In this document: positions 10,149 to 12,968 of the stretch, piece by piece
Layout of the letters: every line of letters begins with the position of its first letter
Position numbering within the stretch: position 1 is the stretch's first letter
Sequence record: PP541514.1
Length of the DNA stretch: 43,322 nucleotides
Direction: 5' to 3' (one strand)
Source of the DNA: Escherichia phage PSK2
Translations under genes and position numbers: made by a program
The notes under the pieces: model-generated
Database searches by the model: none
What the model saw: the letters and a program-made list of their open reading frames with translations, nothing else
Told to the model about the DNA's origin: nothing

Positions 10149-12511
10149 CAACCAGTATAATGCACATCGACTTGGAGACAGAGAACCATGAATATTACGG
10201 CTCTAAAGCAAGCCCATACTGTCCTGACAACTATGTTGTTGAGTCAGCATGGCGTATCGACACGACACAGGCTGACGGTACTACCACTGTTGGTCCGACT
10301 CAATCGGTGCGCTTCAATTCAAGAGCTGATTTCTTGGCGGGAAACAGTGCAGCAGAAGGCTGCCGGTGGTTTCATATCCCAGAGGATTGCTGGCTTATTA
10401 TTGCACACAACGCAGCCTATGAAATTTCTTGGTTTCTCACGTACCAGCGGCAGCAGTTTGAGGCCTTCCTCAAGCGCGGCGGCAGGGTGTTCTGCACGAT
10501 GCACGGAGAATACATCGCCTCGGACTTTCAGAGCATGTATCCGTCACTGGACGAGACGGCTCCTAAGTACGGCGGTACGCACAAAGTAGATGGGGTTAAG
10601 ATTCTCTGGGAGCAGGGTGTATTAACCTCCCAGATTGACCCGATGCTGCTGCATGACTACCTAGTTAACGGGGACATCCCGAACACGGCCCTGTGCTTCT
10701 ACGGCCAGTGCGCTACGTTCGCCCAGCGCAATCAGATGCAGTACGTGTGGGAGCGCATGGATGCCTTACTGGCCTGGGCCTACTGCGAATGGTTCGGTCT
10801 GTTCGTGAATATGCCGATTGCTCGCAAGAACCAAGAAGAGCAGGAGCAGCGTATCTTAGAGATTAAGGAGGAGCTGCAGCAGTACATACCGAAGGACTTG
10901 CCGGAAACACTGGATTTCAACTTCGGCTCTGACTTTCATATGTCTGCGCTGGTGTATGGCGGCCCTATCAAGTACCGCAAGAAGGTGCCCTACGACCCGC
11001 CGCAGTATGTGAAGGTGGATGCCTATCTAGTGCAGGGTACAGAGGGGACGTTTGTACCTTGTGAAAGTACGGATATCAGTGGCGCACACAACTTCGTTAC
11101 TTACAAGGCTGGTAAGAACAAGGGTTTACCAAAAGTTTTCCGCATAGATACAGAGGAAGAGAAACTCAAATGGGAAGATGATCTCTACTTCTGTCCGGGC
11201 TTGGTTAATATCCAAGAACTGCCCGAGGTACTCCGAGAGAAGTATGCTGAGCGCGGAGAGTTCCGACAAGCCCGGTGCCTGCAGGATGGGACTCCAATCT
11301 ACAGCACCAGTACAGATGCAATGGAAGCCCTAGCACGTCACGGGTTCGAGTTCTGTCGATTGGTGAACGAGCTGGGCGCTCTGGAGAAGGACACCGGAAC
11401 TTACTATCTACGAACGGAGTACAACGAAGATGGGTCAATTAAAAAGACCTCAGGTATGCTCCAGTATGTTATACCTCAGAACCCTGATGGTTCAGGTATT
11501 ATACATCACCGCCTCAACACCTGTGCTACTGTTACCGGGCGACTATCTGGCTCTAACCCAAACCTCCAGAACCTCCCGCGAGATGGGACTAGTAAAGTAA
11601 AACAGATGTTCACCTCCCGTTTCGGGGAATCCGGCCGTATCACAGAGGTCGACTACTCTGCCCTTGAAGTAGTTATGTCCTGTGTGCACACAGGGGACAG
11701 GAAGTTGCTGAGTCTGCTGCAGAACGGCACGGATATGCACTGCTACCGCCTAGCGTTCAAGGAGAACAAAACCTACGAAGAGATGTACGACCTCTGCCAC
11801 AATGCCGATGGGCCGGACTATAAGTACTGGAAGCAGCAGCGTACGGACATTAAACCTCCGAGCTTTGCTGCACAGTACGGGGCTACGGCTAAAGGGATTG
11901 CGTTTGCTACAGGCTGTACAGTGGAGTATGCGCAGTCGTTCCTAGATAACGAGGCGAAACTGTTCCCAGACACTATAGGATTCCGCGCTGTTATCAAGGA
12001 AGAAGTAGAGCGTACTGGGGCAGCCGGGCGTATGTACCGGGAACAAGCTGATGATGGCAGTTACCGCATCTACCGCATTGGCACCTGGACCAGCCCAGCT
12101 GGTGCACGGTACAGCTTCCGCCAGAAGGAGCAGTGGAAGGAAGTAGTCCCTGGCCAGCGCAAACAAAAGGTGATGGACTACAAAGAAACTGAGATGGCTA
12201 ACTACTGGTGTCAGGGTGAGGCATTCTTCCTGATGGCAGTAGCAGCTGGTATGGTTCTGCGTGCAATGCTGGCACGGGATTGGTTCAATAATCAGGTGTG
12301 CTTGATTACGAACGTGCACGATGCATTGTATCTGGATAGTGCCAACCCGGAGGTTGGACGTGAGGCGAGCCTACTGGTTAAGCAGTGTATGGAGGATGCG
12401 CCTAAGCGTATCCACCAGCTCTGGCCTAACTACGGCATCATTGGAGAGGTCCCGTTCCCGGCAGAATGTGAAATGGGGGTAAGTATGTATGCTAAAGAGA
12501 AAATTGAGTGA
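10145..12511 (+). CDS. Family A (T7-like) DNA polymerase with 3'-5' exonuclease domain
   Basis: Exo motif HIDLETE; pol motif A DYSALEVV, motif B KPPSFAAQYG, motif C NVHDALYLD; ATG at 10145 with GGGAGG upstream (track ORF starts at GTG 10127). Confidence 0.9.
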   Translation: MTTSIMHIDLETENHEYYGSKASPYCPDNYVVESAWRIDTTQADGTTTVGPTQSVRFNSRADFLAGNSAAEGCRWFHIPEDCWLIIAHNAAYEISWFLTYQRQQFEAFLKRGGRVFCTMHGEYIASDFQSMYPSLDETAPKYGGTHKVDGVKILWEQGVLTSQIDPMLLHDYLVNGDIPNTALCFYGQCATFAQRNQMQYVWERMDALLAWAYCEWFGLFVNMPIARKNQEEQEQRILEIKEELQQYIPKDLPETLDFNFGSDFHMSALVYGGPIKYRKKVPYDPPQYVKVDAYLVQGTEGTFVPCESTDISGAHNFVTYKAGKNKGLPKVFRIDTEEEKLKWEDDLYFCPGLVNIQELPEVLREKYAERGEFRQARCLQDGTPIYSTSTDAMEALARHGFEFCRLVNELGALEKDTGTYYLRTEYNEDGSIKKTSGMLQYVIPQNPDGSGIIHHRLNTCATVTGRLSGSNPNLQNLPRDGTSKVKQMFTSRFGESGRITEVDYSALEVVMSCVHTGDRKLLSLLQNGTDMHCYRLAFKENKTYEEMYDLCHNADGPDYKYWKQQRTDIKPPSFAAQYGATAKGIAFATGCTVEYAQSFLDNEAKLFPDTIGFRAVIKEEVERTGAAGRMYREQADDGSYRIYRIGTWTSPAGARYSFRQKEQWKEVVPGQRKQKVMDYKETEMANYWCQGEAFFLMAVAAGMVLRAMLARDWFNNQVCLITNVHDALYLDSANPEVGREASLLVKQCMEDAPKRIHQLWPNYGIIGEVPFPAECEMGVSMYAKEKIE

Positions 12512-12968
12512 GTGTATTAACCACCCCGGAGGTATGTTCCCTTCCGGGTACGGTGCTAAGTGGTGGCGAGGAGCCACTAGAAAGGCTCACCGAGTAGCCT
12601 ACTGTCAAGCACACGGACTGCTGCCTGAAGATATAGAGGGAGTTATAATCCGCCACAAATGCGACAACAAGGCGTGCATAAACCCAGACCACTTAGAGCC
12701 AGGTAGCCATGCTGACAATATGCGGGATATGGTGGAGCGACAACGTTCGGCGAGAGGTGTACGCAATAGTAAAGCTAAGTTAACCCCTGAGCAGGTAGCT
12801 GAAATCCGGCAACTGTTTGTACCGCAATCTACAGAATACGGTTCAGTAGCCTTGGGTCGAATGTATGGAGTCAGCAACAGTACAATCAATAGAATAGTGC
12901 GAGGTTTGTACTGGAAGGCAGGGGCTGAAATGGGTACGAGCATGTACAGTAAGGAGAAAGTAGAATGA
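12489..12968 (+). CDS. HNH homing endonuclease
   Basis: Motif AHRVAYCQAHG...IRHKCDNKACINPDHLEPG...N; its C-terminal 13 codons duplicate the DNA polymerase C-terminus. Confidence 0.65.
   Translation: MLKRKLSECINHPGGMFPSGYGAKWWRGATRKAHRVAYCQAHGLLPEDIEGVIIRHKCDNKACINPDHLEPGSHADNMRDMVERQRSARGVRNSKAKLTPEQVAEIRQLFVPQSTEYGSVALGRMYGVSNSTINRIVRGLYWKAGAEMGTSMYSKEKVE

Follow-up and report, generated by a model that had tools for sequence, protein, structure and literature searches.

The locus studied here raises the question of why the 3' end of a phage DNA polymerase gene should be present twice, once across the start of an HNH endonuclease gene and once again at its end. It lies in a stretch of 43,322 nt from Escherichia phage PSK2 (sequence record PP541514.1), which is called the window below at its full length. 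The window comes from a phiKMV-like podophage in the Drulisvirus group (Autographiviridae, Slopekvirinae), and its polymerase is homologous to the polymerases of Drulisvirus phages. We consider it likely that positions 12460–12916 are a free-standing HNH homing-endonuclease cassette, which lies inside the coding sequence of the family-A polymerase without an intron or intein and brings a replacement for the polymerase tail (table 1). An initial annotation, made from the sequence alone, had read the locus as the footprint of invasion by an endonuclease gene; a precise 457-nt insertion/deletion (indel) and the incongruent histories of the HNH gene and its flanks, both described below, support that reading.

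Table 1. Features of the polymerase–HNH locus and their positions in the window
Feature	Positions	Strand	Basis
Family-A DNA polymerase gene	10127..12511	+	Pfam DNA_pol_A, 96 bits, residues 378–785 of 794
Probable mobile cassette: substitute polymerase tail and HNH gene body, 457 nt	12460..12916	+	Homology to the L031/L057 indel
Copy 1, apparently cassette-borne polymerase tail, AECEMGVSMYAKEKIE + stop	12461..12511	+	Complete only in HNH+ genomes
Likely HNH ribosome-binding site, GGGGGT (putative function)	12475..12480	+	Sequence reading; conserved in all HNH+ genomes
HNH (His-Me finger) endonuclease open reading frame, 159 aa	12489..12968	+	Pfam and PHROG assignments
Copy 2, apparently displaced resident polymerase tail, AGAEMGTSMYSKEKVE + stop	12918..12968	+	Matches the single tail of HNH-less relatives
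Ribosome-binding site of the downstream gene, AAGGAG, within copy 2	12951..12956	+	Read from the sequence
Downstream gene, 73 aa, function unassigned	12965..13186	+	phrog_6862, E = 2e-42; without Pfam match

The Duplicated Polymerase Tail

The polymerase open reading frame (ORF) ends in ...FPAECEMGVSMYAKEKIE, with TGA at 12509–12511, and the HNH ORF ends in ...WKAGAEMGTSMYSKEKVE, with TGA at 12966–12968. Direct comparison of these ends gave two in-frame segments of 51 nt, spaced 457 nt apart, which were identical at 35 of 51 nucleotides and at 11 of 16 amino acids; the similarity broke off sharply at both edges. The control comprised all 42,814 51-mer pairs of the window with an offset of 457 nt. 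They averaged 12.7 identities (standard deviation 3.3), and at least 32 identities were reached at the copy 1/copy 2 locus only, while the maximum among 500,000 random 51-mer pairs was 31. When the C-terminal 16-mers of 239 stop-to-stop ORFs were compared, the two copies had 11 identities and the next best pair had 7. The duplicated C-terminal segment that the initial annotation described is thus real, and no other locus of the window is comparable. It exists in frame, as was claimed, but its length is 51 nt rather than 42 nt. The differences had also been called mostly synonymous, which holds by codon count but not by nucleotide count (5 of 12): in the 13-codon core 8 codons differed, 5 of them synonymously and 3 by replacement (V/T, A/S, and I/V). 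The pair was missed by a generic repeat finder, its copies having diverged too far. The spacing of 457 nt was also found in four other intact HNH+ genomes.

The Native Copy

The two copies were compared with the polymerase tails of related phages. A sequence search with window positions 11900–13400 hit 329 records of phages. At the top, with about 92–93% identity, stood Klebsiella phage Hope, Shigella phage SFN6B, and Escherichia phages ZH5, AV102, and Minorna, each of which was missing about 457 nt of the query. More than 130 HNH-less relatives possessed one tail of the copy-2 type, with its stop overlapping the next start as ATGA or GTGA. In SFN6B, Hope, and fHeKpn01 this tail is ...PFPAEAEMGTSMYSKEKVE, encoded by copy-2 DNA, and its stop lies over the downstream ATG; copy 2 and the tails of the most closely related HNH-less phages were 94–98% identical. 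Moreover, 80 polymerase C-termini were surveyed in IMG/VR, including 40 Drulisvirus-like relatives (37 HNH-less and 3 HNH+). Each of the 37 HNH-less contigs had a single tail. The initial annotation had named HNH-less phages with a doubled tail as a possible refutation, and such a tail was seen in none of these 37 contigs, nor in SFN6B, Hope, or fHeKpn01; in all of them the polymerase stop directly overlapped the downstream start, as had been expected of relatives without the gene. The arrangement of copy 1, HNH gene, and copy 2 was found in three IMG/VR contigs.

A query of 81 nt ending with copy 1 was searched against GenBank phages. It matched three of them at 91–96% (RCIP0106, pKP-M186-2.2, and Henu2_3), all HNH+, and its identity was at most 81.5% in 130 HNH-less records. 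In IMG/VR the copy-1-specific pattern occurred only in the three HNH+ contigs. Complete copy 1 is known from the window, the three GenBank phages, and the three contigs, all of which are HNH+, and the HNH gene was carried by 3 of 133 GenBank and 3 of 40 IMG/VR relatives, at one fixed site. Since copy 1 is complete only together with the HNH gene and the HNH-less tails are copy-2-like, copy 1 travels with the element. The sequence comparisons indicate that copy 1 belongs to the element and that copy 2 is the resident polymerase tail. Between the two origins first proposed, a forced duplication or an insertion that carried a polymerase tail, the latter fits the mobile unit as it exists at present.

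Two HNH-less relatives had partly copy-1-like tails, namely the Klebsiella phage AltoGao (L032), with AECEMGVSMYSKEKVE, a TGT Cys codon, and Val, and contig L034, with AECEMGTSMY... and the TGT Cys codon. These tails may have been left behind by partial conversion or by loss of the cassette, and are perhaps resistant alleles. We also observed that the Thr codon of the native tail (window 12936–12938) is polymorphic in relatives, where it specifies Thr, Met, or Leu (Val in copy 1); variants were noted for L033, L037, L066, and L072 and for P0003–P0005, and the remaining tail peptide was nearly invariant. This polymorphism might reflect selection at a nuclease target.

Boundaries of the Cassette

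Two contigs from one metagenome, L031 (HNH+) and L057 (HNH−), defined the boundaries. Once exactly 457 nt are taken out of L031, it equals L057 without a mismatch across the adjoining 887 nt upstream and 324 nt downstream. The empty site in L057 reads CCGTTCCC^AGCAGAGGCTGAGATGGGTACG, and the filled site in L031 reads CCGTTCCC[GGCGGAATGTGAG...HNH...TATTGGGT]AGCAGAGGCTGAG. The insertion point is inside the polymerase ORF, behind a Pro codon 17 codons ahead of the stop, and the last 17 polymerase codons of the window (from 12460) are cassette DNA. The initial annotation was right that the HNH gene is an insertion at the polymerase gene, but the site is not past its 3' end. Already at their first base the two copies are unlike, and no homology exists to their left; recombination between the repeats therefore cannot yield a pure copy-2 allele, so the empty site is not a deletion product of this kind.

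Sites that distinguish HNH− from HNH+ genomes are in the HNH− state in the window as far as 12302 and once more from 12959 onward. By these sites, the window is a Hope/SFN6B-like backbone with a patch of at most about 650 nt. Position 12460 (CCG vs. CCA) was considered as a cassette-linked left co-conversion marker and rejected, as both states are common in HNH-less contigs.

Recoding and Probable Translational Coupling

The motif GGGGGT sits 9 nt ahead of the ATG at 12489, which is conserved in all HNH+ genomes. A start at TTG 12504, which would give MSEC... as in homologues, was rejected, the codon being TCG in L001 and L006. The HNH ORF shares the last 23 nt of the polymerase ORF in a different frame. 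Compared with the native tail, copy 1 has GGG-GTA for GGT-ACG (Thr to Val), a recoding that would create the HNH ribosome-binding site, and TAT-GCT for TAC-AGT (Ser to Ala), which creates the HNH ATG. The signals of the downstream gene are lost in copy 1 (AAGGAG to AAAGAG and GAATGA to GAGTGA, that is, ATGA to GTGA). Some of the divergence of copy 1 is thus recoding that provides the HNH gene with a ribosome-binding site and a start codon. Even where the HNH genes of cassettes have reached synonymous saturation, their copies 1 differ at only 0–3 of 42 nt, and this low divergence fits dual coding.

At its other end, the HNH gene apparently has no stop of its own; it seems to be fused in frame to the resident tail and to end at the native stop. 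The ATG of the downstream gene (12965) overlaps the TGA of the HNH ORF in GAATGA, while in HNH-less phages it overlaps the polymerase TGA instead. Because the HNH ORF ends at the native stop overlapping this ATG, the translational coupling between the polymerase and the downstream gene would be preserved. Copy 2 holds both the ribosome-binding site and the overlapping start of the downstream gene, just as the initial annotation had it, and an AAGGAG motif is found at the equivalent position in HNH-less relatives. In SFN6B and Hope, the downstream gene is annotated right behind the polymerase gene with a 4-nt overlap. A scan of the window found no sigma-70-like promoter and no plus-strand terminator-like site between the polymerase, HNH, and downstream genes.

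The HNH Protein

The HNH protein has the predicted C-terminus ...AEMGTSMYSKEKVE. Its residues 1–8 are encoded over the polymerase tail in the other frame, residues 31–79 form the HNH_3 domain, residues 83–142 a helix-turn-helix domain, and residues 144–159 the resident polymerase tail. HNH_3 (PF13392) was matched with 42.2 bits, above the curated cut-off of 24.8, and PHROG agreed (phrog_59 "HNH endonuclease," E = 4.6e-31) and also assigned the C-terminal helix-turn-helix domain; the protein class first proposed is borne out. Residues H56, C58, D59, N60, C63, H68, and N77 were invariant across 40 homologues including the window protein, and presumably have the catalytic or metal-binding roles general to this family. 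The dN/dS ratio (nonsynonymous to synonymous substitution rates) among five intact HNH copies was 0.02–0.07, and the gene is under strong purifying selection.

An AlphaFold2 model had a predicted local distance difference test (pLDDT) score of 79, with strands at 53–56 and 69–72 followed by a helix at 74–83, a succession that might correspond to a beta-beta-alpha-metal fold. Residues 11–140 were confident, and 145–159 had pLDDT below 50; in this model, the polymerase-tail peptide is predicted to be a disordered appendage. Free-standing HNH homologues stop at "...RG.YW.A-stop," where the window protein runs on into copy 2. Foldseek found no match for the model in the PDB at E ≤ 0.001; its best matches, including I-PpoI and SMAD MH1 domains, were weak (E ≥ 0.38) and merely suggestive. 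A homology to TAL effectors in the PDB sequence search was rejected as spurious: it came from a short motif, YCQAHGLLPEDI (window 12593–12640, HNH residues 36–51), matched to LCQAHGLTPEQV and summed over 17 repeats to E ~1e-16, while the single-repeat matches each had E ≥ 200.

Probable Mobility, Age, and Recurrence

Pairwise identities were calculated for the HNH gene, the last 600 nt of the polymerase gene, and the downstream gene. L013 and L014 were 93.8% identical in the HNH gene and 63.9% in the downstream gene; for L006 and L014, the values were 84% and 99.1%. The HNH gene and its flanks thus have different histories. Two HNH copies were disrupted. In Henu2_3 (L001) the gene has a poly-G run and a 1-nt deletion (2127–2140 and about 2397), and in Acinetobacter phage Petty (L005; Beijerinckvirinae) it is frameshifted (3001–3461). 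Frameshifted copies are what one expects of a homing endonuclease gene late in its life cycle.

Petty has the same design at the same codon, with an HNH protein 50% identical to that of the window. Its polymerase ends in ...AACEQGVNMANKTHVD-stop, and its HNH ORF ends in ...AAAEQGASMAYKEHIE-stop over the next ATG. A close HNH-less relative of Petty was searched for and not found; its nearest HNH-less polymerase, that of Vibrio phage VH-5, has the copy-2-like tail AAAEQGASMAIKNHID. In contig L026 (HNH 80% identical), SAEMGPSMYEKSEVV-stop is followed by the HNH gene and then by EAEAEMGTSMYSKEKVQ-stop, again at the same codon, and the HNH start overlaps the polymerase stop. Other homologues occupy different positions: directly behind the polymerase gene, without duplication, in Friunavirus AS12 and contigs L027 and L029; upstream of the polymerase gene in VH-5; and before a primase/helicase gene in ChT04. 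No duplicated host-gene tail was found at the homologue loci of VH-5, ChT04, or IMG/VR contigs L016–L022.

Proposed Mechanism

The cassette is inserted after the Pro codon and supplies, as copy 1, a substitute for the displaced 16 codons and stop. Its DNA completes the polymerase, and HNH translation would start 23 nt ahead of the polymerase stop. In a mixed infection, the HNH enzyme would cut or nick the uninterrupted polymerase tail of a cassette-less phage, the empty-site sequence ...CCGTTCCC^AGCGGAAGCTGAAATGGGTAC... being the putative target. Repair from the cassette-bearing genome could then proceed with the polymerase body as the left and copy 2 with the downstream gene as the right homology arm, so that the 457-nt unit would be copied in. 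The cassette-bearing genome would be protected, its target being recoded in copy 1 and, at copy 2, parted from the sequence that used to lie upstream. Between copy 1 and the empty-site tail 16 of 51 nt differ, and a new sequence context precedes copy 2.

Several points weigh against this mechanism. Copy 2 is intact in cassette genomes, and protection therefore needs a target that reaches upstream of the insertion, or cutting at a distance. Evidence of left co-conversion in the window is weak, since position 12460 is polymorphic among HNH-less phages. Synonymous divergence (dS) between HNH copies is saturated (>1) and higher than in the polymerase segment next to them, so that the cassette lineages must be old and vertical descent with loss could lie behind part of the patchy distribution. 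Copy 1 may have originated either as a foreign polymerase tail or as an in situ duplicate that was later recoded. Finally, cleavage, homing, and immunity are activities that we infer for the enzyme.

Alternative Explanations

The origin of copy 1 leads to the alternative that survives best, although we regard it as unlikely: copy 1 would be a local duplicate of the resident tail, produced by illegitimate insertion (compare target-site duplication) and diverged in place rather than imported. Among the 80 polymerase tails, copy 1 (EMGVSMYAKEKIE) was indeed closest to the Drulisvirus-type tail (EMGTSMYSKEKVE), and several of its differences can be traced to the emergence of the HNH ribosome-binding site and start. 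However, copy 1 had 12 differences in 39 core positions to every HNH-less tail, against 0–4 between one HNH-less tail and another, and the copies 1 of the window and Petty share derived states (the TGT Cys codon, GGGGGTAA, and A[G/A]TATG). A local origin bears on the history of copy 1 only and would leave the present-day unit unchanged.

A second, clearly less probable explanation is that the HNH gene is an old accessory gene, vertically inherited or domesticated (for example, in excluding competing phages) and repeatedly lost, the duplication being the fossil of a single ancient insertion rather than part of a still-mobile element. The saturated dS of the HNH gene, together with its low dN/dS, indicates long-term selection on the protein as this explanation would have it, and the rarity of HNH+ relatives (three in each database) would agree with repeated loss. 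On the other hand, the gene is precisely present or absent, as 457 nt, within 1.2 kb of perfect identity in one community; HNH relationships conflict with those of the flanks; and the whole clade of the window (Hope, SFN6B, ZH5, AV102, Minorna, and others) is without the gene. Moreover, loss by recombination between the repeats would leave chimeric tails, while nearly all HNH-less genomes have pure copy-2 tails.

It is highly improbable that the HNH gene lies within a group I intron, an intein, or a translational-bypass segment and that the mature polymerase ends with copy 2. Copy 1 already gives the polymerase a complete, conserved tail and a stop of its own, and a duplicate exon would be needless in an intron arrangement. 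A search of window 12000–13400 for introns found no Rfam family match at E ≤ 1, and an intein is excluded because 457 nt, the length of the insert, cannot be divided by 3 and the HNH gene uses another frame. Finally, chance or low-complexity resemblance, which the short, Lys- and Glu-rich tails might suggest and which the initial annotation had raised, is ruled out for practical purposes, since 35 of 51 identities were never approached in the window-wide or random-pair controls and HNH-less relatives have a polymerase tail to which copy 2 is directly homologous.

Relation to Known Systems

The cassette interpretation has its closest parallel in the mobile-ORF (mORF) hybrids of fungal mitochondria, which affect atp6, atp9, cox2, and nad3 in Glomus (PMC3630166; see also PMC6279837); an atp6 hybrid of Allomyces macrogynus is attributed to Paquin, Laforest and Lang 1994, as cited in PMC3630166. 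In these hybrids, the endonuclease ORF carries an inserted C-terminus, and the native one stays downstream and matches element-less relatives (PMC3630166). The window likewise has an endonuclease ORF in the 3' part of an essential gene, with a substitute C-terminus in frame and the native C-terminus displaced downstream, where it is closer than the inserted one to element-less relatives. The inserted C-terminus is far more diverged in DNA than in protein in both systems (copy 1 is 69% identical to copy 2), and, as in some mORF cases, the ORF and host gene sequence are in the same phase. In contrast, the host here is a lytic bacteriophage instead of a mitochondrion, and the nuclease is of the HNH (His-Me finger) type, not LAGLIDADG or GIY-YIG. 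Unlike in the mORF hybrids, the ribosome-binding site and start of the nuclease are contained in the substitute tail, in an overlapping frame; fusion of the nuclease to the native tail keeps the stop/start coupling; and the duplication spans no more than 51 nt.

Among phages, SegF, SegG, and MobE of T4 are free-standing homing endonucleases that spread by intronless homing (PMC2790892; PMC2988022), and HNH genes commonly adjoin phage DNA polymerase genes (PMC10448857). The element of the window resembles the T4 genes in being a free-standing nuclease gene beside a conserved, essential replication gene, sporadic among close relatives, and presumably spread by break repair with co-conversion of flanks. 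The T4 genes are found in intergenic positions or divide a gene into two working parts, whereas the present one lies within an ORF and restores its 3' end. The T4 mobA and gene 60 bypass cassette, reportedly described by Bonocora et al. in 2011, is similar in that an endonuclease travels with extra sequence in a neighbouring essential gene, with the target altered and the product functional; there the extra sequence is a 50-nt translational bypass, while here it is a recoded duplicate of a gene end. I-HmuI, I-TslI, and I-PfoP3I are intron-encoded HNH endonucleases in phage DNA polymerase genes, and T7-like phages have HNH genes within group I introns of their polymerases (PMC3428280). These endonucleases share with the window an HNH nuclease at a conserved family-A polymerase segment in T7-like podophages, but no intron was detected here, and the insertion is at the extreme C-terminus.

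No phage precedent for a nuclease-linked replacement or duplication of a gene's 3' end was found in the literature searched, which is not proof of absence. Gene-end replacement of the mORF kind is known from fungal mitochondria; the phage host, the HNH enzyme, and the two-sided translational coupling set the present case apart. Tentatively, and with somewhat less confidence than doubt, we suggest that an old HNH "tail-replacement" lineage, a phage counterpart of mORFs, is aimed at the same Pro codon in the family-A polymerase genes of different Autographiviridae subfamilies (Drulisvirus-like phages, Pettyvirus, and a third lineage), its recoded tail serving at once as polymerase C-terminus, immunity determinant, and translation-initiation region of the nuclease. 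If true, this would be a third general route, besides introns and inteins, by which a homing endonuclease can reside in essential viral coding sequence. A selfish nuclease gene could occupy an essential phage gene without splicing by means of a recoded gene end, and by hooking onto stop/start coupling on both sides it would spare the polymerase and the downstream gene.

The locus also offers a testable system, with natural filled and empty sites in near-identical genomes and a defined putative target. Target variants (the TGT Cys codon, and Thr, Leu, Met, or Val at one position) are candidate resistance alleles. The HNH gene has been labelled inconsistently, as a truncated "endonuclease" in Henu2_3, a "DNA-directed DNA polymerase" in pKP-M186-2.2, and a "DDE endonuclease" in Petty. 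Moreover, these phages are candidates for phage therapy against Klebsiella and E. coli, and the cassettes mark recombination boundaries between them.

Neighbouring Insertions and Other Features

Other Drulisviruses (L003 at 2109–2657; L046, L053, and L054) carry a nucleotidyltransferase gene at the same junction between the polymerase and downstream genes, which begins at the ATGA overlap and has no tail duplication. The junction is a hotspot for accessory genes. Relatives also have extra ORFs between the small downstream gene and the metallophosphoesterase gene (the window's intergenic 13187–13312): L038, L043, L050, and L057 about 400–835 nt past the polymerase stop, L004 at 2948–3226, and L006 at 2937–3371. 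Another HNH homologue, 37–40% identical, is among these ORFs. These sites and others form a cluster of nuclease insertion sites near the polymerase gene.

A second HNH_3 ORF, with an AP2 domain, is located at window 14555–15016; in Hope and SFN6B, otherwise the closest relatives of the window, the HNH/AP2 gene overlaps the 3' end of the metallophosphoesterase gene instead. The window diverges from these two phages across 14311–14900. Positions 13560–14440 are mosaic, with identities of 0.75–0.97 to Klebsiella phages pKP-M186-2.2 and RCIP0106 versus 0.46–0.72 to Hope and SFN6B. A tandem array of about 14 GC-rich units with a period of 9 nt (GCNCCNGYN-like) was found at window 15723–15848.

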